NCBI GenBank assembly: GCA_035347155.1
Contig: DAORET010000006.1
Coordinates: 64,001 to 105,970, forward strand
Origin: Leptospiraceae bacterium
GTDB taxonomy: Bacteria; Spirochaetota; Leptospiria; Leptospirales; Leptospiraceae
Length of the DNA: 41,970 nucleotides
Reading direction: 5' to 3'
Shown here piece after piece: positions 6,541 to 36,711 of this stretch. The position numbers and the translations under genes were made by a program. Numbering within the stretch: position 1 is the first letter of the stretch; each line of letters begins with the position of its first letter. The notes beneath the pieces were generated by a model. That model made no database searches, was not told the origin of the DNA, and was given only the letters and a program-made list of their open reading frames with translations.

Positions 6541-6628
6541 ATTGTCATTTTTCAATGACAATGGGAGCAAACCTCATTTGAACGCTTGGTTCACCCGAAC
6601 TCAATCATTGCTTTTATGAAGCAATGAT
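6541..6628. other. Two perfect AT-rich hairpins in a locally GC-richer intergenic island (possible structured RNA or atypical bidirectional terminator)
   Basis: attgtcatt-tttc-aatgacaat (6541-6562, 9-bp stem) and atcattgctt-ttatg-aagcaatgat (6604-6628, 10-bp stem). Both lie between convergent genes, with no clean U-tract. Confidence 0.3.
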
Positions 6629-6744: not shown

Positions 6745-8418
6745 TCAAAAATGATTCTGAGCAATTCTTCTGACTGCATCTACCAATCTATCAATCTCTT
6801 CCTTGGTATTATAAAAAGAAAGGGAAGGACGAACAGTAGACTCTACACCATATCGTCGAAGAGAAGGTTGTGCGCAATGATGACCAGCACGCACAGCAAT
6901 TCCCTCTAAATCTAAAAGTCTTCCAACTTCAGATGTTTGTTTATTTTGCAATACAAAGGAAAGAACCCCTACTTTATTGGGAGCGGTTCCTATCAAACGT
7001 AAACCTTTTATTTGAGTCAAACCAGCTGTAGCATACTCCAAAAGAGAATGTTCATATTTAGCTATGTTCTCTAGACCTATGCTATTCACATAATCCAAAG
7101 CAGCACCCAAACCTACTGCATCTGCTATATTCGGAGTTCCTGCCTCAAATTTAGCTGGTAAATCACTATAAGTTGTTTCCTCAAAGGTTACATTTTTTAT
7201 CATATTCCCACCACCCTGCCAAGGAGGCATTAACTCTAAAATTTCTTTTCTTCCATAAACAACACCGATCCCAGTAGGACCAAAGATTTTATGTCCAGAG
7301 AAAACAAAGAAATCAGCTTCCAAATCTTGAACGTTAACTGGAATATGTGCGACCGACTGCGCCCCATCGATTAACACTTTTGCTCCATGCCTTTTCGCAA
7401 GTCCTATCATTTCTTTTACAGGTAGAATTGTTCCAAGACTATTTGATGCTTGCGTCAAAGATACAAATTTAGTCCTCGGACCAAGGAGTCTCTCATAATC
7501 TTCTAGAATTACTTCTCCTCTCTCATTCAGTGGAATAACACGAATGATGGCACCCTTCTCCTTTGCTACAATTTGCCAAGGGACAATATTTGCGTGATGC
7601 TCTGCTTGAGATAGAATGATCTCATCCCCTGCTTGAAAATACTTTCTTCCGTATGTTTGAGCGACTAAATTGATCGCCTCCGTTGTTCCTCTAACAAATA
7701 TAATTTCTGATGTGGATGAAGCCTTAATAAAATTCTTTACTTTCTCTCTTGCATCCTCGAATGCATCTGTAGATCGAGCAGCTAACGTGTGCGCTCCTCT
7801 ATGTATATTTGAATTATCATTTGAGTAGTAATGACTGATTGCATCAATCACAATTTTCGGTTTTTGCGTTGTTGCAGCATTGTCAAACCAAGCTAGTGGC
7901 TTTCCATGCACTTTCTGATTTAACACTGGAAAATCTTTCCGAATCTGATTCACATCAAATGGTTGATTGGAATAAATATCTTTTACAAATCTAGAATCAC
8001 TCTGTTTTTGAAAAAAAACACAATTATCCAATCCATTCCAATTTAAATTATGATTCGAGTTTTTACCTTGAATACTTTCGACAAATGATTTCAGGTTATC
8101 ATACTTTCTTTCACCAACAATTTCTGATTGCTGTTTCTTTAAAGTCCCAACGGATTCAGAAATCGTTTTTTGATCCAAATTCAACTTTTCAGAAACAGAC
8201 TCATTTCTATCTGTAATTTCCGAAGTATTTTTTCCAAATACTATCTCTTGGATTTTCTCAAAATCTAAATCTTTTTCTTTTCCAGAAAAAGATTTTTCAG
8301 GCATATATTTATTAGCCGCTACTTTAAAAGAACTCCCCGAAATACTATTTGCTTTCGGAAGTTCATTATAAAGCTTTGAAGCTATTTGCGCAATAAAACT
8401 TGTATCGAATGGTTCCAT
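6745..8418 (-). CDS. Group II cysteine desulfurase (SufS/CsdA-like) with ~170-aa low-complexity N-terminal extension; putative encapsulin cargo
   Basis: PLP lysine context FSGHKIFGPTGIGVVYG and catalytic Cys context RAGHHCAQP. The preferred start is ATG 8416-8418 (MEPFDTSF), preceded by AGGAGA at a 5-nt spacing. The ORF-track start at 8487 is likely too long. The first ~170 residues are S/K/E/N-rich with no fold motifs. Confidence 0.8.
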   Translation of the reverse strand: MEPFDTSFIAQIASKLYNELPKANSISGSSFKVAANKYMPEKSFSGKEKDLDFEKIQEIVFGKNTSEITDRNESVSEKLNLDQKTISESVGTLKKQQSEIVGERKYDNLKSFVESIQGKNSNHNLNWNGLDNCVFFQKQSDSRFVKDIYSNQPFDVNQIRKDFPVLNQKVHGKPLAWFDNAATTQKPKIVIDAISHYYSNDNSNIHRGAHTLAARSTDAFEDAREKVKNFIKASSTSEIIFVRGTTEAINLVAQTYGRKYFQAGDEIILSQAEHHANIVPWQIVAKEKGAIIRVIPLNERGEVILEDYERLLGPRTKFVSLTQASNSLGTILPVKEMIGLAKRHGAKVLIDGAQSVAHIPVNVQDLEADFFVFSGHKIFGPTGIGVVYGRKEILELMPPWQGGGNMIKNVTFEETTYSDLPAKFEAGTPNIADAVGLGAALDYVNSIGLENIAKYEHSLLEYATAGLTQIKGLRLIGTAPNKVGVLSFVLQNKQTSEVGRLLDLEGIAVRAGHHCAQPSLRRYGVESTVRPSLSFYNTKEEIDRLVDAVRRIAQNHF

Positions 8419-8431
8419 AGTATCTCCTAGT

Positions 8432-9871
8432 CTACTTTGGTAGAGAATTTCTATTCTGATAATCGTGATAATATCCGACTTCAACATTCTCTAAAACAGC
8501 TAACGCATCATCCGTTAAGACAACAGCGGATGAGTAGAGTGTTAATAGGTAAGAAGCTACTCCAAGATTATCTAATCCCATGAGTCGTGCGGAGAGACTT
8601 GGAGAAATTTCACCAGGTATTCCAATCTGATGAAGACCAACAACACCCTGCTCTTCCTCTCCCACACGGAGTAATAATATACTTGTAGTTCCAAACCACT
8701 GGTTCGATAAATTCGTATTTTTAACTTCTAGTTTATCACATGGGATAATTGGTATACCACGCCATGTGATAACCGGACTTCCAAATATTTGAGTTGTAAC
8801 TGGTGGAACTCCCCTCCAAGTGCATTCTCTTTCAAACGCAGCAATCGCTTTGGGATGCGCTAGAAAAAAAGCTGGTTTTTTCCAAACCAACGCAAGTAGT
8901 TCATCTAAATCGTCAGGCGTTGGAGCTCCATATCGTGTGCTAATTCTCATAGATGGATCAACAGAATGGAGTAATCCAAATTTTTTACTGTTTATTAGTT
9001 CCCATTCTTGTCTTTCTTTGATTCCTTCAATCGTTAGCCGCATTTGCTCTTCTAATTGATTGTAGGGATTATTATACAAATCAGAAACTCGTGTGTGAAC
9101 TCTAACTACGGTTTGAATTGCATTTAAAGAATATTCTCGGGGTTTATCTGAATAATCAATAAATGTCTCTGGAATTTCAACATTTTCAGCAAAACCAGAT
9201 ACTAAATCAATATTCCTTTCACCATATTTATTTACGGTCGATCTCAATTCAATGTGTTTATCAATCGCCTTTTTAAAATCTTCTTTTAAATTTGGAAACT
9301 CACTTAAAATATCATCTAAATCTTTTCCTGAAAGGGTAAGCAATTTACAAGGAGTGATCGTTCTAACAGTAACGTCAGACGGAATATCAGACACTAATTC
9401 GATTTCTCCGAAATATTCTCCTTCAGTTAGTAGTGCAATTCTCAAATCACTGCCGTGCACTCCTTTACTTAGAACCTCGACTTGCCCTTGTGCTATGATA
9501 AAAAATTTATTTTTATCAACCCCTTCTACTACTAATTTATTTCCTAATGTAACCTCTTCTGTCTTAAAACGATTTGCCATCCGATTTATAATATCATCTT
9601 GGAATTTTGCAAACAGTGGCACTGATCGAAGAGACTGCGGATTGAAAGATACTGCGCCATCCTTGAAATTCAATTCTACTCTTTCTGCCTTTTTTAATTC
9701 TACTTTTGTTCTGTTCACTCTATACGTTCCACCTTCAACATGAACCCATGGAAGAAGACTTAATAGATATCTCGGGGTAATAGACATCATCTGTGGACGA
9801 GTCTTTGTAGTATTCGCAAGGTTTCTTGCTACTGACGTTGTTACGCTTCTTTGTAATATGTTATCTGACAT
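8432..9871 (-). CDS. Family 2B encapsulin-like shell protein, paralog 2 (HK97-like with internal cNMP-binding domain)
   Basis: Size of 479 aa. The internal CAP-type cNMP-binding motif is FIIAQGQVEVLSKGVHGSDLRIALLTEGEYFGEIELVSD...PCKLLTL. It is adjacent to a cysteine desulfurase with an N-terminal extension and to cysE. It is about 75% identical to the upstream paralog. Confidence 0.6.
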   Translation of the reverse strand: MSDNILQRSVTTSVARNLANTTKTRPQMMSITPRYLLSLLPWVHVEGGTYRVNRTKVELKKAERVELNFKDGAVSFNPQSLRSVPLFAKFQDDIINRMANRFKTEEVTLGNKLVVEGVDKNKFFIIAQGQVEVLSKGVHGSDLRIALLTEGEYFGEIELVSDIPSDVTVRTITPCKLLTLSGKDLDDILSEFPNLKEDFKKAIDKHIELRSTVNKYGERNIDLVSGFAENVEIPETFIDYSDKPREYSLNAIQTVVRVHTRVSDLYNNPYNQLEEQMRLTIEGIKERQEWELINSKKFGLLHSVDPSMRISTRYGAPTPDDLDELLALVWKKPAFFLAHPKAIAAFERECTWRGVPPVTTQIFGSPVITWRGIPIIPCDKLEVKNTNLSNQWFGTTSILLLRVGEEEQGVVGLHQIGIPGEISPSLSARLMGLDNLGVASYLLTLYSSAVVLTDDALAVLENVEVGYYHDYQNRNSLPK

Positions 9872-9887
9872 TCTATTCTCCTTTTAT

Positions 9888-11351
9888 TTAAATGCCTAAT
9901 CCATCACTAAAATAGTTTGAATTTTTATTTTGATAGCTATGATAATATCCCACCTCCACATTTTCTAAAACAGCAATAGCATCGTCGGTTAAGACGGCTG
10001 CGGCAGAATATAACGTTAATAGATAGGATGCTACCCCCAAAGGATCTAAACCCATTAATCTAGCAGATAGGCTTGGTAAGATTTCTCCCGGGATTCCAGC
10101 TTGGTGTAATCCAATGACTCCTTGATTTTCTTCCCCAACTCGGACTAATAGAATATTTGTTGTTCCAAGCCAAGGTCTAGAGTAGTAATTACTTTTTACT
10201 TCCAATTTGTCTGAAGGAATAATTGGAATTCCTCGCCATAGTATCAGAGGTGCACCGAAAGAATTCTCTGTCACAGGAGGGACTCCTCTCCAAGTGCATT
10301 CCCTTTCAAATGCAGCAATCGCTTTAGGATGAGCCAAAAAGAATGAGGGTCTTTTCCAAACCAAGGCAAGTAACTCATCTAAATCATCAGGAGTTGGAGC
10401 TCCATAACGTGTGCTAATTCTAAAAGCTGGTGATACCGAATGGAGTAATCCAAATTTTTTATTATTTATCAATTCCCACTCTTGTCTTTCTTTGATTCCT
10501 TCAATCGTTAGCCGCATTTGCTCTTCTAATTGATTATAGGGGTTATTGTATAAATCAGAAACTCGTGTGTGAACTCGAACTACTGTCTGGATTGCATTTA
10601 AAGAATATTCTCTCGGAGATTCTGAGTAATCAATGAAAGTCTCTGGAATTTCAACATTTTCAGCAAAACCAGACACAAAATCGATATTTCTTTCGCCGTA
10701 TTTATTCACAGTGGAGAGCAATTCAATATAATCATCAATAGCTTTTCTAAAATCATTTCTCAAATTTGGAAACTCATTTAGAATTTGCTCTAAGTCTGCT
10801 CCGTATAACGTCAATAATTTACAAGGAGTTGTTGTCTTTACTGTGACATCTGAGGGCTTATCCGAAAGCAGACCCTGTTCTCCAAAATATTCACCTTCTG
10901 TGAGAAGTGCGATTCTCAGATCACTCCCATGAACACCCTTGCTAAATACTTCAACCTGACCTTGGGCTATAATAAAGAATTTATTCTTATCCTCACCTTC
11001 AACAACAAGAGTCGTTCCTAAACTAACTTCCTCCGTTTTAAATTGATTCGAAATTCGCGTGAGTATATCTAATGGAAGTTTCGAAAAAACAGGAACCGTT
11101 CGAAGCGCTTCTGGATTAAATGATAAAAAAACAAATCCATCTACAATATTTAATTCAATTCGTTCTGCTCTTTTTAACTCAACCCTGGTCCTATTGACTC
11201 GGTAAGTTCCACCTTCTACTTGCACCCAAGGGATAACACTAAGTAACCACCTTGGGGTTATTGACATCATCTGTGGATGTGTCTTTGTTGTATTGGTCAA
11301 ATTTTTAGCCACTGATGTTGTCACACTACGCTGCAAAATATTATCTGACAT
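9888..11351 (-). CDS. Family 2B encapsulin-like shell protein, paralog 1 (HK97-like with internal cNMP-binding domain)
   Basis: Size of 487 aa with the same architecture and cNMP motif (GEYFGEQGLLSD...PCKLLTL). The N-terminus MSDNILQRSVTTSVAKNL is shared with paralog 2. Confidence 0.6.
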   Translation of the reverse strand: MSDNILQRSVTTSVAKNLTNTTKTHPQMMSITPRWLLSVIPWVQVEGGTYRVNRTRVELKRAERIELNIVDGFVFLSFNPEALRTVPVFSKLPLDILTRISNQFKTEEVSLGTTLVVEGEDKNKFFIIAQGQVEVFSKGVHGSDLRIALLTEGEYFGEQGLLSDKPSDVTVKTTTPCKLLTLYGADLEQILNEFPNLRNDFRKAIDDYIELLSTVNKYGERNIDFVSGFAENVEIPETFIDYSESPREYSLNAIQTVVRVHTRVSDLYNNPYNQLEEQMRLTIEGIKERQEWELINNKKFGLLHSVSPAFRISTRYGAPTPDDLDELLALVWKRPSFFLAHPKAIAAFERECTWRGVPPVTENSFGAPLILWRGIPIIPSDKLEVKSNYYSRPWLGTTNILLVRVGEENQGVIGLHQAGIPGEILPSLSARLMGLDPLGVASYLLTLYSAAAVLTDDAIAVLENVEVGYYHSYQNKNSNYFSDGLGI

Positions 11352-11384
11352 ATTCTAAACTCCTTACTATCATATTCTATTATT

Positions 11385-12293
11385 CTATATACCTGATCCA
11401 AAATAAAAATGCTCTTGTATTACTTTCGCCTGCGTAATTTTAGAGTTAGGCGGAATATCTGTAGTAATCCAAACATTTCCTCCAATGGTTGAATTCTTAC
11501 CAATAGTGATCCGCCCCAAAATATTTGCGTTAGAATAGATAACTACATTATCTTCAATAATTGGATGCCTTGGCTCATTTTTTATTGGATTTCCAGATTC
11601 ATCTAATGAAAACTTTTTTGCTCCGAGCGTAACTCCCTGATAAAGCCGAACGTTATTTCCTATAATCGCAGTTTCTCCAATTACAACGCCGGTTCCATGA
11701 TCAATACAAAAATTTTCTCCTATAACCGCACCTGGATGAATGTCAATGCCAGTCTCTGAATGCGCAAGTTCAGAAATAATTCTAGGCAATAAGGGGATAT
11801 TTAATTTTAAAAGTTCATGAGCAATTCGATGATTCATCATTGCTCTTATCGTAGGGTAACAAAAAATTATTTCAGCAATGTTCTTCGCGGCCGGGTCAGC
11901 ATCATACATTGCTTTTGCATCTGTAAATAATAACCGACGAATTCTTGGTAGTGATTCAATAAATTTTAACGTCAGTCGTTCGCTCTTTTCCCGTATATTA
12001 TCATCTAAAGCGTGAAAATCAAACCAAAGGCCATTGTGTATTTGCTGAGAAAGCATTTCATATAATTTCTCTAGATTACCAACTGTTGAATACGCAACCA
12101 TTGCAGAGTTGGTATTATTCTTCCCAAAGTATCCGGGAAATATTATGGTTCTAAGTAATTCGATGATTTCCTTTAAGTTTTCTATCGATGGGAGAGTTTT
12201 ATTCTTTGGTATAAAATTTATCGCAGCATCTTCAGCCTTCAATAAATCACTCGTCGTCTTTTCCAAAGCAGAGCCAATATCAATTTGCCGCAT
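11385..12293 (-). CDS. cysE: Serine O-acetyltransferase
   Basis: The left-handed beta-helix hexapeptide block GIDIHPGAVIGENFCIDHGTGVVIGETAIIGNNVRLYQGVTLG closely matches the CysE core. It is the first gene of the minus-strand operon. Confidence 0.85.
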   Translation of the reverse strand: MRQIDIGSALEKTTSDLLKAEDAAINFIPKNKTLPSIENLKEIIELLRTIIFPGYFGKNNTNSAMVAYSTVGNLEKLYEMLSQQIHNGLWFDFHALDDNIREKSERLTLKFIESLPRIRRLLFTDAKAMYDADPAAKNIAEIIFCYPTIRAMMNHRIAHELLKLNIPLLPRIISELAHSETGIDIHPGAVIGENFCIDHGTGVVIGETAIIGNNVRLYQGVTLGAKKFSLDESGNPIKNEPRHPIIEDNVVIYSNANILGRITIGKNSTIGGNVWITTDIPPNSKITQAKVIQEHFYFGSGI

Positions 12294-12458
12294 AAATTCC
12301 TCCCTATTTTATTCAATATAATGAAGTATATTAAATATATTAAAGCATTTAAGATAATATAACAGATGTATAATATAATATACTAGATATATATTCAATA
12401 TATTAGTCAATTAAAAAAATAAAAATAAATGAGATCCTAGAGCAGCAAGCAAAGCTTC

Positions 12459-12476
12459 TTCCATTTTGAAATGGAA
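12459..12476. promoter_or_regulatory. Palindromic candidate operator TTCCATTT-TG-AAATGGAA in a divergent promoter region
   Basis: 8-bp perfect inverted arms sit in the 386-bp AT-rich gap between the cysE-shell operon and the divergent ACT-domain gene. Confidence 0.3.
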
Positions 12477-13373: not shown

Positions 13374-13940
13374 TTAAATAAACTTATCAGAGTTTAGTGC
13401 AGTCTCAATTATTTCTGCGATATCTGCATAGCCGGATCTTTTAGCAAGATCTAAGGCAGTGTTTCCATCCTCATCTTCTAGGTGCAACGCTGCTCCTTTT
13501 TCGATTAAGATTTTAGCTGCATCAAATCTACCATGTGTAGCTGCATAATGAAGAGGTGTAAATCCAAAAGTATTTTGTTTGTTTAAAGTAGCTCCATTTT
13601 CAACAAGAAGCTTTACCACTTCTGTTTTACCGTGATGGGCAGCATAATGGAGCGGAGTGTATTCAAAATCGCTTTGAGCATTCACTTCTGCCCCACTCTC
13701 AATTAAGACTTTCGCAATATCCACCCCACTTTGATTGGCAGCATAGTGAAGCGGTGTATATCCGAAATTGCTTTTAGAATTTAGTTCAGCACCCCTTTCG
13801 ATAAGCGATATGACTAATTCAACATGACCCCGACTCGCTGCCATATGAAGAGGAGTTTGACCATCTTCATTCTTTCCGTGTACGTTTAATATGCTCTCAA
13901 AATCTACTTTTTCTTTTTGTTCTAGTAACTCTCTATTCAT
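13374..13940 (-). CDS. Ankyrin-repeat protein (5 repeats)
   Basis: Repeated TPLH-x-AA-x-GH...LL..GA..N motifs (GQTPLHMAASRGHVELV, GYTPLHYAANQSG, EYTPLHYAAHHGK, GFTPLHYAATHGR). Confidence 0.85.
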   Translation of the reverse strand: MNRELLEQKEKVDFESILNVHGKNEDGQTPLHMAASRGHVELVISLIERGAELNSKSNFGYTPLHYAANQSGVDIAKVLIESGAEVNAQSDFEYTPLHYAAHHGKTEVVKLLVENGATLNKQNTFGFTPLHYAATHGRFDAAKILIEKGAALHLEDEDGNTALDLAKRSGYADIAEIIETALNSDKFI

Positions 13941-14286: not shown

Positions 14287-15309
14287 TCATTGCACTTTCA
14301 CAGTATAAGAAGATGAGCTATATCCATACACTCCAATTGTTAACACATCTCCGGATGATAAGACTATCGGATAACTTTCAGACCCTGAAACGGTCGATGA
14401 ATAGCTACTTGTTGAAGCCGTCGGACAGCCAGAGCCGTTTTTAGTCATATATAAATCAGGGTCTCCTGTGTTCGCCGTTACAACTACCGTATAAGAGGAG
14501 CTAATTGAAGCAGTAAATGTATAATAAACATAACTTCCTGTTGAAACTGAGCCTGTTCGGGAAACATTGTATGTAAGTGCAGTCGCAGAACTACAAGTTG
14601 CGCCTCCTGAAACAGTTGTTGAATTTGTCGGTAGAGTGATGTTATCAATCCAACATGCATCTGATCCACTTGTCCCACCGCTATCTTTCAAATAAGTCCA
14701 AGAGAATACATGTGTGCCTGATGAAATAGAATATCTATATTTTGTCCAATTGATAGAACCACTATCGCCTGACCCATCCTGACTCACTCCATCGATTGAA
14801 AATTTACAATAATCATAGGACATTTCAGAAGAAACTTTTCTATAAAAACTAATCGAGCCAGATGAAGTGGTTGCATACAAGGATGTAATAGTTGACGCAC
14901 TATTTCCGATTGATCCGGATTTTAAACAACTATTGCTATAACAGTTTATAGAACTTGAATCGATCGTCCAAGTTCCAGACCACCCCGATGGTAGACCTGT
15001 ATCAAACGAATAGGTTGGAATTTCATTGTCTATACCAGGTGGAGTATAAGGAAAAGCGGTTAAAATAAGTAAGCAATCTTGGTTTGTATATTTTTTCGTA
15101 TCTACCGATGCACTCATTTGTAAATAGGAACTCACAAAGCCTGTAGATGTTGTTCTTCCAGTAAAATAATTCAACTTCAGATAATCACAGAATGGTTTTG
15201 ATCCATTTTTCTCATTCTCTGCATCAATGGAATCCTTAGCAGAATCATATGCAACTGCTGTGCAGTTTGTTATTATTGTAATGATAAGTATTAATAATTT
15301 TTTATTCAT
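14287..15309 (-). CDS. Putative lipoprotein with Ser/Thr/Gly-rich beta-type C-terminal domain
   Basis: The preferred start MNKKLLILIITIITNCTAVA (cat at 15307-15309) gives a signal peptide with a loose lipobox. The ORF-track start at 15372 adds 21 aa that are not signal-like. The C-terminus is S/T/G/Y-rich. A stem ctttgagg...cctcaaag at 14228-14276 follows the gene. Confidence 0.5.
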   Translation of the reverse strand: MNKKLLILIITIITNCTAVAYDSAKDSIDAENEKNGSKPFCDYLKLNYFTGRTTSTGFVSSYLQMSASVDTKKYTNQDCLLILTAFPYTPPGIDNEIPTYSFDTGLPSGWSGTWTIDSSSINCYSNSCLKSGSIGNSASTITSLYATTSSGSISFYRKVSSEMSYDYCKFSIDGVSQDGSGDSGSINWTKYRYSISSGTHVFSWTYLKDSGGTSGSDACWIDNITLPTNSTTVSGGATCSSATALTYNVSRTGSVSTGSYVYYTFTASISSSYTVVVTANTGDPDLYMTKNGSGCPTASTSSYSSTVSGSESYPIVLSSGDVLTIGVYGYSSSSYTVKVQ

Positions 15310-15419
15310 TGTATTTGCCCTTGCAAAGATATGTCTTCGCAGCTTTTTATATTTTCTGTTTTCATACTCCAATCGTTCTAATACGAAAGGAGTTGATTTG
15401 TCAGAATATTTAGTTTGGT

Positions 15420-16706
15420 TTAATTACAGATAGCAGTAACAACATCCGAGGACGTGCATGCACTTCTATTTATATACCCAAGATCCATTGAAATACCATT
15501 TCCTCTTTTTAAAGTACAGTGACATCTATCAGGAGCAGAACTTGTTGGATTGCTTGGAGCTGAATATGTAGATCCTGAATTACTAGAACTCTTCAATGTT
15601 TGAATAGAATTATTCAAATTGCCTATCGCATTTGCCATATCTACAAAATCTCCTTCACCAGCCATTACACAACCTATGCTTATGGCATTCTTCAATGTCT
15701 CAGCAACGTTAGCCCCTGCGTCAAAAGCGTTTGCAGTATTGTTCCAAGCATTTGCAGCATCACCCGTTGCAAAACTACCCATACCTCTTGAAAAATTAGC
15801 TGCTTGTCTCATATTTGCCTCTGCTTGTGCGTATTCTGCCTTAGCTTGTTGGCACTTGCTAGGAGTTTTCAACCCAGTGCTTTTCATTTGATAATATTCA
15901 TTTTCCATTTGCCTTTTTTGGTTTTCTAGATCAGCAAGTCTTTGCTGTCTTTGCTGTTCTTCTCTTGCAATTCTCTCTTGTCTTTCTCGCTCGATTCGTT
16001 CCTCTTCCATTTTTCTTTGCTCAATCGCATCACTTTTTACACCTTGCTCTATTTTCGCGAGAAACCCACTTCCAGTATAACTATCTATTTGCGAGCGAAT
16101 ATCCTTGATTGCTAATGCGTTAGGCGATGGTGCATTGTATACTTTAAATATAGGATCTCTTCCTCCAGCCGCGGCAAGTGCATCAAAATCTGGTATACCT
16201 TTAATATTATCTCTTACTTTAGAAAAAATTGAATTTCCAGTTGCTTGAATTTGTTTATAATAATTTACAATGGTATTTTTAAGACAGGTTCTTGATTCTC
16301 CAACTGCCTTATCATTTGTGCATCCAATTACTTTTTGAAGGGAGTCCCATGAGTTACAAGTAATGGCTTCTGCATCCTCTAACTCCTGGGTGTCACAAAT
16401 TTTTGGTTTAGTAAAATATTTTAATTCTTCATTTAAACCTGTTACGCACTGAAAACCTTTTAGACTATTTGAACCATACATATCATAGCATTTCTGAATC
16501 GGTTTTACAACTGTGCTATAAAATTCACAGGAGGATTCTTTTAACATAGAGAATATAGTCGCAGGACCTTTTGTTTTACAATCCTTTGTTTTGACAGCTC
16601 CAAACTCTATCGCATCGATTTGGGTTGTTCCTATCGACAATCCAGTTTCATTCCATCCTAAAAGTAAGTAGCAAAAAACTATTAATAAAATATTTCTAGA
16701 TTTCAT
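15420..16706 (-). CDS. Exported Cys-rich protein with central coiled coil
   Basis: Signal peptide MKSRNILLIVFCYLLLGW, many Cys in the N-terminal half, and a charged coiled coil EERIERERQERIAREEQQRQQRLADLENQKRQ. Confidence 0.5.
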   Translation of the reverse strand: MKSRNILLIVFCYLLLGWNETGLSIGTTQIDAIEFGAVKTKDCKTKGPATIFSMLKESSCEFYSTVVKPIQKCYDMYGSNSLKGFQCVTGLNEELKYFTKPKICDTQELEDAEAITCNSWDSLQKVIGCTNDKAVGESRTCLKNTIVNYYKQIQATGNSIFSKVRDNIKGIPDFDALAAAGGRDPIFKVYNAPSPNALAIKDIRSQIDSYTGSGFLAKIEQGVKSDAIEQRKMEEERIERERQERIAREEQQRQQRLADLENQKRQMENEYYQMKSTGLKTPSKCQQAKAEYAQAEANMRQAANFSRGMGSFATGDAANAWNNTANAFDAGANVAETLKNAISIGCVMAGEGDFVDMANAIGNLNNSIQTLKSSSNSGSTYSAPSNPTSSAPDRCHCTLKRGNGISMDLGYINRSACTSSDVVTAICN

Positions 16707-16707
16707 T

Positions 16708-17145
16708 TTATTTCTCCTTTAAAGTAAATTTTGATTCTGGATATGCCTTGTTAAAATCTTGCATTTGCAGTTCTGTATAAGCGCGAACCGCAATATCAGT
16801 AGCTCTAGATTTTAAATCTTCATCAGTTGAGTTTTTTATAATACTCGCAGAGATTGAGAGAGCTCTTTTATAATCTTTTCTTTCTAAAATCTCATCAAGT
16901 TTTTGGAGTATTTCTTGGTTTTGCGAATCACTAGAACTATTTTTTAAATATTCTTCTCGTATCGTTAGTTGCTTTACATAATACTCTTTTTGGCACTGAA
17001 GGAAAGGGGCATAGTATCCCCTTTTATTTTCACATTTATAGGCTTCTTCGGCGGGTGTATTAATTTTTACCTTCCCTTCACCTTTTTGAATGGAAATACA
17101 ATTTCCAATTAAAATAATAAACAAAATTAAATAATATTTTTTCAT
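16708..17145 (-). CDS. Small lipoprotein
   Basis: The sequence MKKYYLILFIILIGNCIS has a lipobox. It sits 2 nt from the downstream gene and overlaps the upstream gene by 4 nt. Confidence 0.5.
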   Translation of the reverse strand: MKKYYLILFIILIGNCISIQKGEGKVKINTPAEEAYKCENKRGYYAPFLQCQKEYYVKQLTIREEYLKNSSSDSQNQEILQKLDEILERKDYKRALSISASIIKNSTDEDLKSRATDIAVRAYTELQMQDFNKAYPESKFTLKEK

Positions 17146-17936
17146 AGAGAACTCCCTGATTGAATCATATTCACAATTGCACTCTTTGTTATCTCTGAAA
17201 GACTCGTTGTAAAAGCGTCATTTCCAATCCGACTGACGAAAAATTTCCCTGTTGAGGTTTTTAAATAGACCGAGTTACCCGAATATTTATTCCCGTTAGA
17301 GACTTTTGTAACCGTTATACTCACATCTCCCTCTAAAGACCAAATACCTGCCATATCGATCCACCAGAGATCCAAGAGAAAAAAGGTATAAAATATATTA
17401 AGAATTCCTAAATCTGGGACTCTTGTATTATAATCCAAAACTAAATTAGAATAGTTTACTTCTATAACTGCGTCAATCCCTGCTGTTTTTAACCACCGTT
17501 GTCGATCAGAAGCAGTCTCTCCAGCAGCAGGCGAAATTAGTCCTAGGTCTAAGGGATTTACTTCTTTTGCTCTTTTGTTTCCTAACTTTTCTAATGCCTC
17601 TTTAAATCCATCTTTGAAGATTGCATTTGGATTCACTTCACCATACGCATCAGCAGCAAAGCTTTTACCTGTTGCTTGTAATACCTTAACATTAATTTCA
17701 TTGTTAGGTGATGATTTTGAATCAGATGTTGGATTTAATGTGCCTGCCACAATAATATATTTTCTAATAGATTTCAAAAATTCTTTTGCATCGGATTCTA
17801 GAGCCTTATCTTTTCTATCACTTGTGCCACAAGACAAAAGAAAAATACTGATTAAAAATCCTACTGAGAACTTACATATTAGAACTATCGTTTTTGTTTC
17901 TTTTTTATTTAAGAATTTGTTCCTATTTACTCTCAT
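17142..17936 (-). CDS. Lipoprotein (first gene of the 4-gene exported-protein operon)
   Basis: The signal peptide FLISIFLLSCGTSD carries an LSCG lipobox. No catalytic motif recognised. Confidence 0.5.
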   Translation of the reverse strand: MRVNRNKFLNKKETKTIVLICKFSVGFLISIFLLSCGTSDRKDKALESDAKEFLKSIRKYIIVAGTLNPTSDSKSSPNNEINVKVLQATGKSFAADAYGEVNPNAIFKDGFKEALEKLGNKRAKEVNPLDLGLISPAAGETASDRQRWLKTAGIDAVIEVNYSNLVLDYNTRVPDLGILNIFYTFFLLDLWWIDMAGIWSLEGDVSITVTKVSNGNKYSGNSVYLKTSTGKFFVSRIGNDAFTTSLSEITKSAIVNMIQSGSSL

Positions 17937-22328: not shown

Positions 22329-23429
22329 ATGTTTACAACAATTCGAAATGATGAAAGAGGACTTCTCTTTAAAGATGGAAATTATATTAAAACACTAAAG
22401 CCTGGCAAATATCTATTAGCCGCAAGTCTAGGACATACACTCATTCGAATGGATGTAAATAAAGCTTTTGTGACAGAAAAAAATCTAAATCTTTTTCTAA
22501 AAGATCAGTCCTTAGTCGAAGAACTCTCGATTGTAGAAGTAAATGAGTTTGAAATATGTCTTCACTATGAAGACAATCTACTCGCAAATGTATTAAAACC
22601 AGGACGTTATGCATTCTGGAACATCTTAAAGAAGCATGAATTTAAATTAATCGATACAAGAAATCCAATTCCAAATCAAGAATTCAATCAATCTCTATTC
22701 ACAAATATCAAATTAAATGGATTTTATTATGCCTTTCAAGTTGAAAACCATGAAGCTGGACTTCTCTATTTTAATGGAGTATTTCAAAGTATACTTAAAC
22801 CAGGTAAATACTACTTCTGGGCTGGAGTCATCACAGCTAACGTCATAAAAATAGACTTACGACAGCAACAACTTGACATCAATGGTCAAGAGCTAATGAC
22901 AGAAGATAAAATCACTCTCCGTTTAAACTTCACATCTCAATACAAAATTACCAATCCACTCAAGGTGATGGAAATTAAAAACTACCAAGAACAAGTTTAT
23001 ATTTTACTACAACTAAGCCTTCGTGAATATGTAGGTGCTTTAAAATTAGATGAGCTTTTACAAAAAAAGCAAGAAATTGCAGATTTTGTCCTAACTAAAC
23101 TAAAAGAGAAATCCAATGATTTTGGAATAGAATTTGTATTTGCAGGATTAAAAGATATTATCCTTCCAGGTGAGATAAAAGACATTTTAAATTTAGTATT
23201 AATCGCTGAAAAGAAGGCACAAGCAAATATAATTACTCGTAGAGAAGAAACTGCATCTACTCGTAGTCTCTTAAACACTGCAAAATTAATGGAAGAAAAT
23301 CCAACACTTTATCGACTAAAAGAATTGGAATATATTGAGAAAATTTCCGAAAAAGTTAACTCAATTTCACTCTCTTCCAGTTCAGGGATTTTAGAACAAT
23401 TAGCGTCTATCGTTAATATTAAGAAATAA
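22329..23429 (+). CDS. SPFH/band-7 domain protein with N-terminal triple-repeat module and no TM anchor
   Basis: C-terminal SPFH-like region (ITLRLNFTSQYKITNP...EYVGALKLDELL...ANIITRREETAS). The N-terminus carries three copies of the hydrophobic-x-LKPGKY/RY motif (KTLKPGKYLL, NVLKPGRYAFW, SILKPGKYYFW). AAGGTGGG lies before the ATG. Confidence 0.65.
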   Translation: MFTTIRNDERGLLFKDGNYIKTLKPGKYLLAASLGHTLIRMDVNKAFVTEKNLNLFLKDQSLVEELSIVEVNEFEICLHYEDNLLANVLKPGRYAFWNILKKHEFKLIDTRNPIPNQEFNQSLFTNIKLNGFYYAFQVENHEAGLLYFNGVFQSILKPGKYYFWAGVITANVIKIDLRQQQLDINGQELMTEDKITLRLNFTSQYKITNPLKVMEIKNYQEQVYILLQLSLREYVGALKLDELLQKKQEIADFVLTKLKEKSNDFGIEFVFAGLKDIILPGEIKDILNLVLIAEKKAQANIITRREETASTRSLLNTAKLMEENPTLYRLKELEYIEKISEKVNSISLSSSSGILEQLASIVNIKK

Positions 23430-23430
23430 C

Positions 23431-25500
23431 ATGTTTAAAGTTGGTATTGGACAATCAGATGAGATCGACACACTGTGTGCGACAGAAAAAGCAATCGCAC
23501 AAGCGAGAAATTCTCTAGGAAGTTTTATTCCGCAAGCCTGTATTTTATTTGCAGGGCTTGATTTTGAGCATGAGAAAATATTAGAAGAAATCAATAAAAC
23601 TTTTCCAGATATTAATTTGATAGGATGTTCTTCCGGTGGAGAGATTACAAGCGAATTCGGTTTTACTGATGATTCGATTGTAATATTGCTACTCTATTCA
23701 GATGAAGTATCTTTTTCTATTGGGCTTGGGTATGATTCAGAAATGAATTCAGAAATAGCGGCGAATAACGCTTTGGAGATGGCACGAAAAAATCTCACAA
23801 ACGAAGAAAAACTATGCCTTGTTTTTACTGATAGTTTCAGTCTCTCAGGAAACAAGATCATTCAAACTCTGAATCAGAAAGTGACAAAAGGATGTAAAAT
23901 TTTCGGTGGTGTTTCAGCTAGACCATTTGTTTCCAACCTAAAGACAAAGCAATTTTTTAAAGACAAAGCTCTTTCTCAATCCGTAGTAGTAATGCTGATT
24001 GGAGGACCTATAGAGTATAAATACAGTCTATCTCATACTTGGAAGCCTATTGGTAGAAAAGCAATTGCAACGTTAGTTGAAGGCAAAAAGTTAATTAAAA
24101 TAGATGATATGAGAGCACTCGATTATTATCATTATTATCTTGGAGATTTTTCATTTCCTGCTCCAGAATTTCCACTCGCAGTTTATCAAAACGATTCAGA
24201 AGATTTTTACATTCGAGTTCCTGGCGGCTATAACAAAGAAGATGGATCTGTTTTATTTGCAGGTGAAATCCCACAAGGTTCCACAATTCAACTAACTGAG
24301 GCAATGAGAGATTATATTGTAGACGATTTAGACCAAGAATCGATTCGTCAGAAAAAAATGAAAATTAATTTTGAGCCAGCCATGGCATTTGCCTTTTCGT
24401 GTATCGTTCGAAAGCAAATACTAGGAACAAAGGTAAAAGAAGAAATTCGTGTGTTAAAAGAACATTTCCCACCTTCTTTCCCAATATTTGGATTCTATAC
24501 TTATGGAGAAATTTCTCCCCTAGAATCAGAAGAAAGTAGTAATTTGCACAATTGCACAATGGTTACCTTAGTAATAGGAACTAAATCAACTTCCAATCAA
24601 ACAGAAAAGAAAGAGGCTAATCAAGATTATCCCGAAGAATCTCCAAATTTAAGTGATTCGGAAATCATAGAAGAACAAAAAAATGAAATTCTAAAACTAA
24701 GAAAGAAATTAGAAAGAGAACATAGTTATAGAGTAAACTTAGAAAATGTAAAAGACTTTCATGGTTCGGTTTTAAAAACAATCAATCATGAAATTGAAGC
24801 AGCAAAACAAGTAATTCAGCAAAAGAATGTAGAGCTAGAAAAACTTTACAAAGCTCTTGAATCAGAAAAAAAGAAGTCAGATGATTTACTTTTGAACATA
24901 TTACCAACACAAGTTGCTGAAGAATTAAAACAGAACGATTTTACAAAGCCTGTCTATTATGAGTCAGCATCTGTATTATTTACCGATTTCAAAGGTTTTA
25001 CAAAAATTGCAGGCAAAATGAGCCCTTCTGAACTAGTTACTGAATTGGATTTTTATTTTTCCGAATTTGATCGGGTGATTGAAAAATATGGTTTAGAAAA
25101 ACTAAAGACGATAGGCGATGCTTATATGTGTGCAAGCGGATTACCTAAAATCAATTCTAATCATGCAATAGACTTAGTAAATGCAGCTTTAGAAATTCAA
25201 GAGTTTATGCTAAATCTAAAAAAGGAAAAAGGTGAATCTGTTTGGGAACTTAGAATTGGAATTAACTCAGGTCCACTTATGGCAGGTGTGATTGGAAAAA
25301 AGAAATTCTCCTACGACGTATGGGGAGATACAGTAAACATCGCATCTAGGCTTGAGTCCAATGGAGAAGCAGGTAAAATAAATATTTCGCAGTATACTTA
25401 CGAATTGATTCGAGACCACTTTATTTGTGAATATAGAGGTAAAATCGCAGCAAAAAATAAGGGTGAAATTGATATGTATTTTGTATTAGGACGAAAGTAA
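23431..25500 (+). CDS. FIST-domain adenylate/guanylate cyclase (FIST_N-FIST_C-coiled coil-class III cyclase)
   Basis: The N-terminal ~380 aa are FIST-like (GCSSGGEITSEFG, GFYTYGEISP). The C-terminal CYCc domain is VLFTDFKGFTKIAGKMSP...KTIGDAYMCASGLP...GPLMAGVIG...DVWGDTVNIASRLES. The start lies 1 nt after the upstream stop. Confidence 0.8.
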   Translation: MFKVGIGQSDEIDTLCATEKAIAQARNSLGSFIPQACILFAGLDFEHEKILEEINKTFPDINLIGCSSGGEITSEFGFTDDSIVILLLYSDEVSFSIGLGYDSEMNSEIAANNALEMARKNLTNEEKLCLVFTDSFSLSGNKIIQTLNQKVTKGCKIFGGVSARPFVSNLKTKQFFKDKALSQSVVVMLIGGPIEYKYSLSHTWKPIGRKAIATLVEGKKLIKIDDMRALDYYHYYLGDFSFPAPEFPLAVYQNDSEDFYIRVPGGYNKEDGSVLFAGEIPQGSTIQLTEAMRDYIVDDLDQESIRQKKMKINFEPAMAFAFSCIVRKQILGTKVKEEIRVLKEHFPPSFPIFGFYTYGEISPLESEESSNLHNCTMVTLVIGTKSTSNQTEKKEANQDYPEESPNLSDSEIIEEQKNEILKLRKKLEREHSYRVNLENVKDFHGSVLKTINHEIEAAKQVIQQKNVELEKLYKALESEKKKSDDLLLNILPTQVAEELKQNDFTKPVYYESASVLFTDFKGFTKIAGKMSPSELVTELDFYFSEFDRVIEKYGLEKLKTIGDAYMCASGLPKINSNHAIDLVNAALEIQEFMLNLKKEKGESVWELRIGINSGPLMAGVIGKKKFSYDVWGDTVNIASRLESNGEAGKINISQYTYELIRDHFICEYRGKIAAKNKGEIDMYFVLGRK

Positions 25501-26349: not shown

Positions 26350-27417
26350 ATGCTTGGAATTCGATTTATCAAAGTGCGACCTACTGATTATGCAATTCTT
26401 TATAAAAAAGGACAGATTCGAAATGAAGGAGCAGGTATTAGTTTCTTTTACTATGCCCCATCTTCAAACGTTGTAATAGTGCCTGCCGCGAGTTGCGATT
26501 CTCCCTTTATATTTAAAGAAACTACAGTAGACTACCAAGAGATCAATATCCAAGGACAATTCACATATCGAGTTCTAGAACCTAGAAAACTGGCTGGACT
26601 TTTAGATTTTGCCGTTGATGTAAATGGTCGTTATACGGGAGATGGTTTTGAAAAACTTCCTGTTCGACTTATGAATGTGATTCAAGTTACTATCCGTGAA
26701 AAACTTTCTGGACTTGATTTAAGAACAGCTTTAAAATCTGGAAGTGAATTTGTATCCCATGTGAAATCAAGACTAAAAGACAATGAATCTCTATCTGCGT
26801 TAGGTGTAGAAGTAGTTGACTTTGCCATATTGAAAATAAGCCCAACCCCAGAAATGTCTAGAGCACTAGAAGCAAGTGCAAGGGAAACTCTACTCAAAGA
26901 AGCGGATGAAGCAATTTACGTCAGACGAAATTTTGCAGTAGAACAAGAAAGAAAAATCAAAGAAAATGAATTGCAAACCCAAATTGCAATCGAAGAAAAA
27001 AATAGAAAAATTCGCGAAGAACAAATGAATATTGAAATTGCAGTTCAAGAAAAAAAAAGCTTGCTCGAAGAAGCAAGAATGAACTCGCAAAAAGCCCTCC
27101 AAGAAAAAGAAAATGAAATAGAAGCACAAAGATTAAAAGCAGAAATCCAAAGAGAAGAGGATCGTAAGCTTCTTGTGAATCATCAGTCCGAAAATATAAT
27201 CCAAACCTCTAAAGCTAAAGCGGAAGCAATTCGTCTTGAGCTAAATGCATTAACAAGCTTAACTCCTGAATTTTTAGAAATACTAGCTTCAAATCAAATG
27301 AACTCACAGCAGATCGTTAGTCGCGCAATGAGAGAGCTTGCAAAAAATGCAGATAAAATTGGTAATCTAAACATTACCCCAGATTTATTAAATAATTTAT
27401 TAGAAAATAATAAATAA
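26350..27417 (+). CDS. Flotillin-like SPFH protein with long C-terminal coiled coil
   Basis: The N-terminal SPFH-like beta/alpha region is followed by ~150 aa of E/K/Q/A-rich heptad sequence (QERKIKENELQTQIAIEEKNRKIREEQMNIEIAVQEKKS...), as in flotillin/YqiK-type proteins. No N-terminal TM helix. Confidence 0.6.
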   Translation: MLGIRFIKVRPTDYAILYKKGQIRNEGAGISFFYYAPSSNVVIVPAASCDSPFIFKETTVDYQEINIQGQFTYRVLEPRKLAGLLDFAVDVNGRYTGDGFEKLPVRLMNVIQVTIREKLSGLDLRTALKSGSEFVSHVKSRLKDNESLSALGVEVVDFAILKISPTPEMSRALEASARETLLKEADEAIYVRRNFAVEQERKIKENELQTQIAIEEKNRKIREEQMNIEIAVQEKKSLLEEARMNSQKALQEKENEIEAQRLKAEIQREEDRKLLVNHQSENIIQTSKAKAEAIRLELNALTSLTPEFLEILASNQMNSQQIVSRAMRELAKNADKIGNLNITPDLLNNLLENNK

Positions 27418-32357: not shown

Positions 32358-32972
32358 TTAAACTATTTTTAATTTCACATGAATGCTTTCTACAACTTCC
32401 GGATAACCGTTTTTAATTGCAAGATAGAGAGGAGTATTCCCATCACCATCTTCCAAGTGCATCCTTGCTCCTTTCTCAATTAAAAGCTTTGCTACTTCGA
32501 TTCTTCCATGAACTCCCCAACAATACTTGTATTTTCCTCTTTCTACACAATCATCACATTCAAGAAAAATACGAGTATGATTCACTGCACAATGTAGCGG
32601 AGTATGCCCAAACGTATTTTGTATATTTAATGGAGCACCATGTTCAATCAGTAAACTCGCTTCTCTCAACTTTCCATGATTTGCAGCAAAATGCAGTGGT
32701 GTATAGTCGAAATTACTTAAAACATTTACCTTTGCACCCCTCTCTAAAAGTATTTTTACAATTTCATAGCCTCCTCTATTAACAGCATAGTGAAGTGGAG
32801 TGTGCCAATAATTTGTAACCGCATTTATATCAGAACCATTATTCAGTAAGGCAATTACTTTCTCGCTATTTCCTTCATTCGCTGCAATATGGAGAGACGT
32901 CAATCCATCAAAGTCTCTTTCTTCATAGTCTGGTCTAAAAGTTTTTTCTATTTCTAATATCGTTTTATCCAT
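32358..32972 (-). CDS. Ankyrin-repeat protein (second paralog in window)
   Basis: Repeats GLTSLHIAANEGN, WHTPLHYAVNRGG, DYTPLHFAANHGK, GHTPLHCAVNH, GNTPLYLAIKNGY. Confidence 0.85.
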   Translation of the reverse strand: MDKTILEIEKTFRPDYEERDFDGLTSLHIAANEGNSEKVIALLNNGSDINAVTNYWHTPLHYAVNRGGYEIVKILLERGAKVNVLSNFDYTPLHFAANHGKLREASLLIEHGAPLNIQNTFGHTPLHCAVNHTRIFLECDDCVERGKYKYCWGVHGRIEVAKLLIEKGARMHLEDGDGNTPLYLAIKNGYPEVVESIHVKLKIV

Positions 32973-36090: not shown

Positions 36091-36219
36091 ATTTTTTGAG
36101 AAACGAACTGAGAGCAAGAATAAATTAAAAACTGTCTTTATACAAAAAAGGAAGATGTAAAGCGAATCAAAAAGATGAAAAGTAATTTTATTAATATTCT
36201 AGAGAAATTGGAGTTAAGT

Positions 36220-36711
36220 ATGAACAAAATATTTAAATATATCATTTGTGTCCTGATTGGTTTTTCCATTTTTACATGTGGTAAAATCATTGGAGAACAA
36301 AAAACAAAGCAAACCTATTCAATCCAGAAATCAGATGAGGAATGGAAAAAAATTCTAAGTCCAGAAGCATACAAAGTCTTAAGAGAAAAAGGAACAGAAC
36401 GACCTTTCACAAACGAATTTTCTTTAAAAGAAAAGGGTTACTTTGTTTGTGCTGCCTGCGGCAACAAAGTGTTTGCCTCTGACCATAAATTTGATTCAGG
36501 CACAGGCTGGCCTAGCTTCTATCAACCAATCAATAAAGAAAATGTAGGAGAAGAAACAGATAAAAGTTGGGGAATGACTAGAACAGAAGTTCATTGCAGC
36601 AAATGTGGAGGACATTTAGGTCATGTTTTTAATGACGGTCCTAATCCTACAGGTCTTCGATACTGTATAAATGGAATCGCATTGAAGTTTATTAAGTTTG
36701 ATAGTAAGTAA
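36220..36711 (+). CDS. msrB: Peptide-methionine (R)-S-oxide reductase MsrB, lipoprotein-anchored
   Basis: Two CxxC zinc motifs ([18 protein letters not shown]) and the catalytic RYCING (RYCINS-type). The preferred start is ATG 36220 (GGAG 6 nt upstream), giving [21 protein letters not shown] (lipobox). Confidence 0.85.

Follow-up and report, generated by a model that had tools for sequence, protein, structure and literature searches.

A four-gene operon at nucleotides 6745–12293 of a 41,970-nucleotide (nt) stretch of Leptospiraceae bacterium DNA (contig DAORET010000006.1, positions 64,001 to 105,970; this whole stretch is hereafter the window) very probably encodes a Family 2B encapsulin nanocompartment with two shell proteins, Enc1 and Enc2, and a cysteine desulfurase cargo, an assessment that includes the general mechanism described below. 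The first gene codes for a serine O-acetyltransferase (SAT), an enzyme of cysteine synthesis. The two shells end in dissimilar C-terminal tails, which appear to have been kept by selection while the shell bodies were homogenised, and the tail of Enc1 resembles that of the SAT CysE. According to the open reading frame (ORF) list of the window, the four genes are co-directional on the minus strand and follow one another in this order (aa, amino acids):

Nucleotides 11385–12293, minus strand: SAT, 302 aa, first operon gene, recognised by NF041874 and Hexapep.
Nucleotides 9888–11351, minus strand: shell protein Enc1, 487 aa, a Family 2B encapsulin by NF041163, PF19307 and PF00027.
Nucleotides 8432–9871, minus strand: shell protein Enc2, 479 aa, a Family 2B encapsulin by the same three models.
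Nucleotides 6745–8418, minus strand: cysteine desulfurase cargo, 557 aa from the corrected start, recognised by TIGR01979 and Protein Data Bank (PDB) entry 8kg1.

The intervals between these genes are 33, 16 and 13 nt, and an AGGAG-type ribosome-binding site precedes each of them. A preliminary description of the locus had named four co-directional, tightly spaced genes, comprising a cysE-type SAT, two shells and a SufS-type desulfurase; the ORFs and the profile matches confirm this gene set, and the strand is the minus strand. The two shell genes, 16 nt apart, lie within the 10 kb that delimits a two-component pair of 2B genes. A plus-strand ORF (9252–9743) that sits antisense within Enc2 is spurious.

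Both shell proteins exceed the 400-bit cut-off of the NCBIfam model NF041163, 'family 2B encapsulin nanocompartment shell protein', with 560.5 bits for Enc1 and 594.3 bits for Enc2. PF19307 (SrpI-like) matches the two shells with expect values (E) of 8.5e-110 and 2.3e-115 (Enc1 residues 214–468, Enc2 residues 210–466), and it is preceded in both by an insertion that matches PF00027 (cNMP_binding, for cyclic nucleotide monophosphates; E 1.5e-16 and 3.4e-14; Enc1 residues 108–193, Enc2 residues 110–191). Residues 7–466 of Enc2 align with the 2B shells 9bje (E 1.7e-118), 9bhu (E 2.1e-109) and 9bix (E 1.2e-106), which were solved by cryo-electron microscopy (cryo-EM), and the alignment is collinear through the insertion, whose presence between the N-terminal arm and the remaining HK97 fold separates 2B from 2A shells. 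The C-terminal half of Enc2 also aligns with the Family 2A shells 6x8m (SrpI), 8t6r (Acinetobacter baumannii), 8wol and 9ksl. The identity of Enc2 to 9bje amounts to 45% over the whole protein, with 57.6% for the HK97 part and 24% for the inserted domain; 9bje contains two strings, TVWK and AVDFHGHSLP, that were published as Sl-Enc1 motifs. Enc1 and Enc2 are 82% identical to each other. Thus, the assignment of both proteins of about 480 aa to the Family 2B shells, made in the preliminary description, is upheld, as are its suggestion of an HK97 fold, which is predicted from PF19307 and from the alignment to solved 2B and 2A shells, and its expectation that encapsulin Family 2 models and PF00027 would match; the CRP and FtrB models reach only 26–33 bits.

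The desulfurase matches PF00266 (E 9e-149) and passes the SufS model TIGR01979 (566.8 bits; cut-off 475.1), and its catalytic domain aligns with PDB 8kg1 (E 4e-173). Its Pfam E value, like those of the shells, is far beyond chance. The lysine that binds pyridoxal phosphate, K377 (SGHK), and the catalytic cysteine, C515 (HHCAQP), are invariant in 45 homologues, in accordance with the SufS-type motifs noticed at the outset. The identical sequence is publicly listed as 'cysteine desulfurase [Leptospiraceae bacterium]'. The ORF as called starts at 8487 (580 aa) and overlaps Enc2 by 56 nt; this start is judged to be an ORF-calling artefact and the gene is read as 8418–6745, because the ATG at 8418 lies 13 nt past the Enc2 stop and 6 nt past an AGGAG, and because most public gene calls on the identical contig agree, giving 557 aa in three of the four contigs shown and 580 aa in one. 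Therefore, the N-terminal extension comprises 151 aa and not the approximately 170 aa of the preliminary description, whose view of it as disordered is nevertheless supported by the AlphaFold2 model:

Nucleotides 7966–8418, minus strand: disordered N-terminal cargo-loading domain, desulfurase residues 1–151, as delimited with AlphaFold2, with the helices FIAQIASKLYNELP (within nt 8347–8409) and NLKSFVESIQ (nt 8068–8097).

In this model, built from 45 homologues, residues 152–557 are confident, and residues 1–151 have a predicted local distance difference test score (pLDDT) below 50 save for helices at 6–19 and 109–118, so that the extension is not predicted to fold into a catalytic domain, the outcome that would have spoken against a loading role. 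The two helices are the only blocks of the region conserved across phyla (D..IAxIASxLYNExPGA and GLKxFVxxIQ), and the stretch that joins them differs in length and make-up from one homologue to another. The first block is the counterpart of the 'LARLANEFFS' motif described for the SrpI cargo (PMC8049743). Of the second published motif, 'AASPYYFLDG', which alone is insufficient for loading of the SrpI cargo (PMC8049743), the YYFL is present in the closest Leptospiraceae relatives and deleted in the window desulfurase. The window loading domain is short and rich in Ser, Lys, Asn and Glu, a composition that fits a low-GC genome.

The most informative difference between the two shells resides at their C-termini. 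Homologues were collected by scanning GTDB species representatives, which yielded 517 relatives; the best 80 were taken as loci and annotated by ORF calling and blastp, and 69 of the 80 had enough upstream sequence to be judged, to which the counts out of 69 refer. The Enc1 tail is as follows:

Nucleotides 9891–9917, minus strand: Enc1 C-terminal tail N-Y-F-S-D-G-L-G-I-COOH, SAT/CysE-like, read from the translation.

Enc2 ends in a short and basic tail (...YQNRNSLPK). In seven shell pairs, the only alignment columns that separate the paralogues lie in the C-terminal tail: the upstream shell (484–487 aa) ends in F-x-x-G-[L/S]-G-I, and the downstream shell (478–481 aa) stops six residues sooner, in Lys. 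The luminal A-domain loop (motif 2) reads TENSFGAPLIL in one and TTQIFGSPVIT in the other member of the window pair; over the seven pairs, no column outside the tail is diagnostic. The consensus of 72 tail-bearing homologues is F (59) or Y (10), two variable residues, G (72), L (49), S (13) or A (7), G (72) and I (72), with both glycines and the isoleucine invariant in 72/72, while a terminal Lys is found in all 58 homologues of the other class (58/58). An Ile-tail shell followed by a Lys-tail shell is encoded in 45/69 species, a single Ile-tail shell in 18/69, a single Lys-tail shell in 4/69, two Ile-tail shells in 1/69, and an Ile-tail shell followed by a shell with an unclassed tail in 1/69. 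A terminal G-x-G-I occurs in 0/150 representatives of other Family 2 clusters and is also lacking from the 2A and 2B shells of solved structure.

Over 47 shell pairs, Enc1 and Enc2 were compared in their bodies, i.e., up to the residue equivalent to 466. The median body identity is 88.8%, and in four species it rises to 100%, 99.1%, 98.1% and 97.4%, with the tails differing throughout. Each Enc1 resembles the Enc2 of its own pair more closely than it does the Enc1 of 67–100% of the other species. In a bootstrapped neighbour-joining tree rooted on Sl-Enc1, the Leptospiraceae Enc1s and Enc2s form sister groups inside one Leptospiraceae clade (92% support), and four other long/short pairs from the same lineage group at 98–100%, two of them verified as adjacent genes. 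Since the pairs group by genome and the bodies reach 97–100% identity, the simplest reading is a concerted evolution in which gene conversion would act across the shell bodies while selection keeps two tails; with the bodies homogenised, the tail is therefore the conserved difference between Enc1 and Enc2.

Two other histories were considered and rejected. A recent lineage-specific duplication of the shell gene is ruled out by the tail dimorphism across phyla and by the divergence of the window genes, which share 74% nucleotide identity and use identical codons at 51% of identical residues. An ancient duplication without exchange is ruled out by the pairing by genome (bootstrap 92–100) and by the body identity of 97–100% in some species.

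The locus designated L029, with shells at 8923–10380 and 10432–11871, has bodies that are 100% identical and tails that read HGFEGGLGI and YEHRKQNPK; it is the clearest case of gene conversion stopping before the tail.

The tail of Enc1 recurs in the SAT of the same operon. This protein passes the EpsC-type model NF041874 (167.8 bits; cut-off 150), matches Hexapep (E 1.7e-12) and scores 170.7 bits with the cysE model TIGR01172, under the cut-off of 210.65. Its C-terminus is as follows:

Nucleotides 11388–11408, minus strand: SAT C-terminal tail F-Y-F-G-S-G-I-COOH, a CysE-type CysK-docking motif, read from the translation.

E. coli K-12 CysE ends in HTFEYGDGI, and the pattern F-x-x-G-x-G-I is common to the window SAT and Enc1. 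The SATs of related operons end in HHFEDGSGI, EAFDDGSGI, EVFNSGAGI and the like, with Ile as the last residue in 21/23 and G-x-G-I in 14/23; at two loci (L053 and L055), the SAT ends in HHFEDGSGI and Enc1 in SGFEDGLGI. The terminal Ile of CysE is strictly required to enter the CysK active site and provides about 80% of the binding energy, and unrelated proteins, i.e., CdiA-CT (GYGI), CymR and EGL-9, mimic the CysE tail to bind CysK (PMC9547175, PMC12895370). In Family 2 shells, the spikes that project outwards from the five-fold vertices are formed by the C-terminus (PMC8049743, PMC10836720, PMC11550324), so that a further 8-residue tail would face the cytosol. In 29/69 species, the gene directly preceding the first shell gene, and co-directional with it, is cysK; in 36/69, cysK lies within 6 kb. 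One such protein (locus L010) scores 443 bits with TIGR01139 (cut-off 351), and the TSGNTG peptide-binding loop is kept in 42/43 CysK proteins of related loci.

The tail dimorphism and the cysK synteny are thus facts of these genomes. Because the Enc1 tail mimics that of CysE and because cysK synteny exists, we propose, tentatively and with the balance tipped slightly against it, that CysK is bound at the outside of the shell by the tails of Enc1. In the literature searched, no paper names both encapsulin and CysK; encapsulin papers mention 'cysteine synthase' solely as a general step of the pathway, and a 2024 paper stated the role of SAT in desulfurase encapsulin operons as unknown.

It is also quite possible, although we hold it with more doubt than belief, that the F-x-x-G-L-G-I tail is purely structural, or a self-binding peptide like the GPTGLGT loading motif, with no role towards CysK. 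G-L-G is part of the peptides through which 2B terpene cyclases are loaded, and C-terminal extensions shape the five-fold spikes of Family 2A shells; yet cargo-loading peptides bind the luminal side, whereas the shell C-terminus is exterior. The invariant positions of the tail (F/Y at −6, G at −3, G at −1 and the terminal Ile) coincide exactly with the ones in CysE tails, both in E. coli CysE and in the SATs encoded by these operons. Gene neighbourhood points both ways, since cysK is the immediate upstream gene in the 29 species mentioned, but is absent from the window itself, and four single-shell, short-tail operons still have cysK or SAT nearby.

A single-shell arrangement, DsrE-TusA-Enc-desulfurase-SAT, is found at the Geobacteraceae/Desulfuromonadales loci L062, L066, L068, L071, L084 and L088, where the shell has an Ile tail (...NSGAGI). 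The SAT of these operons ends in ...EFD[FY]CI, a different tail in which Ile is still last.

Two-component 2B shells are known to co-assemble (PMC12407261), and Enc1 and Enc2 would probably form, by analogy, a shell of mixed composition. The idea that they form separate homomeric shells, e.g., under different conditions, is unlikely. Andreas and Giessen could not exclude separate shells for two-shell operons (PMC8346489), and the Enc2 of Streptomyces lydicus assembles alone; however, the S. lydicus pair also co-assembles, with all interfaces allowed (PMC12407261). In the window, the two genes belong to one operon with 16 nt between them, and in relatives, the shell bodies are up to 100% identical, and the interfaces therefore cannot tell Enc1 from Enc2. 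As to why there should be two shells, the tail dimorphism, maintained by selection as the bodies homogenise, seems to be the reason in this clade. Two Family 2 homologues, P0259 (997 aa) and P0245 (617 aa), carry C-terminal fusions that continue several hundred residues past the ...VEV end of the HK97 part, which would put large domains at the five-fold spikes.

The domain inserted in both shells has the fold of a cNMP-binding domain:

Nucleotides 10773–11030, minus strand: cNMP-binding-fold insertion of Enc1 (Pfam envelope of PF00027), with the pocket residue Ser167 encoded at 10851–10853.
Nucleotides 9299–9544, minus strand: cNMP-binding-fold insertion of Enc2 (PF00027), with the pocket residue Ser165 encoded at 9377–9379, in P-S-D-V-T-V.

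The phosphate-binding cassette reads G-E-I-E-L-V-S-D-I-P-S-D-V-T-V, in which P-S-D-V-T-V takes the place of the canonical P-R-[ST]-A-T-V. Ser165 of Enc2 and Ser167 of Enc1, each followed by Asp, occupy the position of Arg82 in CAP and of Trp176 in Sg Enc (9bhu), and Ser165 is invariant across a 41-sequence alignment of the clade. Neither shell, then, has the equivalent of CAP Arg82 that canonical cyclic-nucleotide binding requires. Loss of this Arg abolishes the cAMP response in other proteins with cyclic-nucleotide-binding domains, and Sg Enc does not bind cAMP, which has been ascribed partly to an Arg-to-Trp change found in essentially all 2B shells (PMC11550324). To judge from the sequence, the desulfurase-type clade has a third kind of pocket (Ser-Asp), unlike both the true cNMP binders and the Trp of the studied 2B shells. 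Because the phosphate-binding Arg is replaced by Ser, the inserted domain most likely does not sense cAMP or cGMP; the CAP-type cNMP-binding domain of the preliminary description is thus retained as a fold, by PF00027, and loses its nucleotide-binding label.

That the domain is a true cAMP/cGMP sensor gating the shell is accordingly considered very unlikely. The PF00027 matches do exceed the cut-off, and the organism has cNMP signalling, given the two class III nucleotide cyclases encoded in the window; the invariant Ser-Asp at the Arg position and the behaviour of the studied 2B shell and of other Arg-less domains (PMC11550324) stand against it. The cyclase genes lie at 23431–25500 (plus strand) and 34359–35567 (minus strand), and the former encodes a FIST_N-FIST_C-HNOBA-cyclase fusion between the SPFH/Band 7 genes 22329–23429 and 26350–27417. 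Class III adenylate/guanylate cyclases are common in this bacterial family, and their presence does not speak for a link to the insertion domain.

The possibility that the two proteins of about 480 aa are soluble Crp/Fnr-type cyclic-nucleotide regulators beside an ordinary SufS, with no compartment at all, deserves hardly any credence. PF00027 is present in both, and many database entries, including the depositors' names for 9bje and 9bix, read 'Crp/Fnr family transcriptional regulator' or 'CRP-like cAMP-binding protein', but the PDB entries so named are cryo-EM encapsulin shells. The window proteins have no helix-turn-helix domain, they lack the phosphate-binding Arg, their CRP and FtrB scores compare with cut-offs above 200 bits, and about 250 of their C-terminal residues make up a SrpI-like HK97 domain (E 1e-110). 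For practical purposes, the solved homologous shells refute this explanation.

A still smaller, negligible probability attaches to the shell genes being remnants of a prophage HK97-fold major capsid gene that came to lie beside sulfur genes by chance, since, although encapsulins and phage capsids share this fold and false positives are common (PMC8346489), the Family 2B equivalog model NF041163 is passed, shell-desulfurase synteny is kept in more than 60 species, and Pfam scans of the 30 neighbouring ORFs of the 42-kb window found no phage structural or packaging genes, i.e., no terminase, portal, protease or tail genes.

The operon is a further example of a catalogued class, and its shell has already been named by the NCBI pipeline: the entry for the identical Enc2 sequence reads 'family 2B encapsulin nanocompartment shell protein [Leptospiraceae bacterium]'. 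A catalogue of 199 Family 2B desulfurase operons, enriched in SAT and rhodanese genes, is available (PMC8346489), and 503 two-component operons have been reported (PMC12407261). The window sequence also matches contig DAOQOQ010000028.1 of GCA_035332705.1, a Leptospiraceae metagenome-assembled genome (MAG). The SAT-Enc1-Enc2-desulfurase block recurs in a second Leptospiraceae lineage, with an Enc2 that is 94% identical, other flanks and a gene for a sulfate-binding protein downstream. Outside the Leptospiraceae, the nearest homologues plateau at 79–83% identity, in Planctomycetota, Syntrophorhabdaceae and Geobacteraceae, in which Enc(-Enc)-desulfurase recurs with genes for a sulfate ATP-binding cassette (ABC) transporter, rhodanese, TusA, DsrE, SAT and cysK. 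There is no member of the Leptospiraceae among the best 80 of the 517 relatives. The operon appears to be sporadic in the Leptospiraceae and was probably acquired horizontally. A 2026 mini-review lists Leptospira among the genera with Family 2A desulfurase encapsulins (PMC13463818); the earlier remark that such a system was uncharacterised in spirochaetes therefore holds for experiments and not otherwise.

Among the characterised systems, one of the closest is the Sl-Enc1/Sl-Enc2 pair of S. lydicus (Dutcher et al. 2025, PMC12407261), which likewise consists of two adjacent HK97 shell genes with a cNMP-fold insertion, and the desulfurase operon is one of the five two-component types of that paper. 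The cargo differs, being a xylulose kinase in S. lydicus and a desulfurase here; the paralogues here group by lineage and not by an S. lydicus-style Enc1/Enc2 type; and the Streptomyces shells end in ...VEVG, without the C-terminal extension of 13–21 residues and the Ile/Lys dimorphism of the window shells. Sg Enc (EshA of Streptomyces griseus, 9bhu, PMC11550324) is like the window system in its domain architecture, its cargo loading through a disordered N-terminus and its lack of the canonical Arg. Its pocket, however, has Trp176 where the window clade has an invariant Ser, its cargo is a 2-methylisoborneol synthase from another pathway, and it has a single shell gene and vertices flattened by a short C-terminus.

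The Family 2A systems, namely SrpI of Synechococcus elongatus (6x8m), the A. baumannii shell (8t6r) and the mycobacterial MMP-I (8wol/8won/9ksl), share with the window a SufS-type cargo with a LARLANEFFS-like motif, a SAT gene that is often in the operon, the HK97 part (E 1e-97 to 4e-109) and a C-terminal extension of the [YF][YH]xY type. They have a single shell gene without the cNMP-fold insertion, whereas the window has two genes with it; their loading domain is about 225 residues long and rich in Pro, Gly and Ser, against 151 residues rich in Ser, Lys, Asn and Glu and without YYFL in the window; and the solved 2A shells do not end in the G-x-G-I of Enc1. As for the CysE–CysK complex and its mimics, they resemble Enc1 in having a flexible C-terminal tail that ends in Ile, the carboxylate of which plugs the CysK active site in the known complexes. 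The carrier in those cases is a hexameric enzyme or a toxin, while the Enc1 carrier would be a 60-subunit capsid-like shell.

Taken together with the homologous systems, from which shell assembly, cargo loading and sulfur storage are inferred, these data allow a mechanism to be proposed. Enc1 and Enc2, each with the HK97 fold and a cNMP-fold domain inserted in the E-loop, would co-assemble into a T=1 (T, triangulation number) shell of 60 subunits, about 24–28 nm in diameter, with the inserted domains outside over the two-fold pores and the C-termini forming exterior five-fold spikes, as in solved Family 2 shells. The desulfurase would be tethered inside through the short conserved motifs of its 151-residue disordered N-terminal domain. 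By analogy with the A. baumannii 2A system, cysteine would enter and be converted to alanine and sulfur, the latter being deposited inside; Family 2A desulfurase shells store elemental sulfur in the lumen (PMC10836720). The co-transcribed SAT would make O-acetylserine, the precursor of cysteine. Dimers of CysK may dock on the Enc1 tails at the five-fold vertices, where, as in the cysteine synthase complex, they would be inhibited until freed by O-acetylserine, the SAT product. SAT, which bears the same tail, may compete with Enc1 for the same CysK sites, and Enc2, lacking the tail, may dilute the Enc1 tails and so set the docking density.

Several observations weigh against this interpretation. 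The desulfurase scores 795.5 bits with NF041166, the model for encapsulin cargo desulfurases, just under its cut-off of 800. The AlphaFold2 model of Enc2 from 41 homologues is poor (mean pLDDT 44.5, predicted template modelling score 0.33), because the homologues are all at least 79% identical and the alignment is too shallow; the HK97 fold claim therefore rests on sequence homology to solved shells. Diagnostic motif 1, TVWK in one shell type and RRRK in the other, does not split the window pair, in which both shells have the Enc1-like LVWK, and the rules derived from Streptomyces shells may not transfer. The literature holds no experiment on desulfurase-type Family 2B shells. Finally, Pfam and tblastn searches of the 42-kb window for rhodanese, TusA, DsrE and cysK found none of them, so that this fragment shows neither the sulfur acceptor nor the CysK partner proposed above.

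The flanks of the operon offer two candidate control elements:

Nucleotides 12294–12470, minus strand: upstream non-coding region, a candidate promoter/operator, with the block ATTGACTAATA...ATCTnGTATATTATATT and a 21-nt tandem duplication at 12350–12391.
Nucleotides 6604–6628, minus strand: perfect 10-bp hairpin ATCATTGCTT-CATAA-AAGCAATGAT with a 5-nt loop, read from the sequence, 117 nt 3' of the desulfurase stop.

The former lies in an AT-rich region of 386 nt between the SAT gene and its divergent neighbour. The block, about 45 nt long, is common to the 5' side of the SAT gene in the second Leptospiraceae locus (L008), where the flanks are different, and may be a promoter or operator travelling with the operon. 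A consensus scan gave 29 sigma-70-like promoter matches against 24.2 ± 5.1 in shuffled sequence, which is no excess. An Rfam scan of the whole window at gathering thresholds gave no match, and hence there is no known riboswitch or leader ahead of the operon. At the other end, the hairpin lies in a 400-nt gap between the desulfurase gene and a convergent glycosyltransferase gene and may be the 3' end of the operon transcript; it has no T-run, and it was not called by the terminator scan, which found three terminator-like sites against 3.9 in shuffled sequence, none of them situated after the operon. The GC content of the operon (0.35–0.38) is slightly above that of its flanks (0.31–0.32).

The neighbours of the operon encode a glycosyltransferase, ankyrin-repeat proteins and proteins without a Pfam match. 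Ankyrin repeats, uncommon in free-living bacteria, make up almost the whole of two small proteins encoded at 13374–13940 and 32358–32972 (both minus strand). A co-directional run without Pfam matches (14287–15372, 15420–16706 and 16708–17936, all minus strand) includes a Ser/Thr-rich, lipoprotein-like protein and a protein of 428 aa with a Cys-rich N-terminus and a coiled coil rich in Glu, Arg and Gln. A TonB-dependent receptor is split over the overlapping plus-strand ORFs 27466–29277 and 29231–30208, one with the Plug and one with the beta-barrel, which points to a frameshift, to a pseudogene or to an error in the assembly of the MAG. Lastly, the plus-strand stretches 36175–38502 and 38661–41840 encode MsrB (SelR), a protein without a Pfam match, an extracytoplasmic function (ECF) sigma factor with an NrsF-type anti-sigma factor, and an AcrB-family efflux pump, and may represent an oxidative-stress module.

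The operon adds a Leptospiraceae example to the desulfurase-type Family 2B encapsulins, a class so far without experimental study. The points of interest to specialists, all of them computational, are the Ser pocket of the inserted domain, the concerted evolution of the shell bodies with tail dimorphism, and the CysE-like tail with its cysK synteny. As SAT shares a tail of the CysK-docking type with Enc1, the tail provides a handle on the role of SAT in desulfurase operons. If the docking proposal is true, the compartment would have a physical connection to the final step of cysteine synthesis, which would supply a rationale for both the two-component shells and the SAT gene, and CysK would be the first metabolic enzyme recruited to an encapsulin exterior by mimicry of the cysteine synthase complex.

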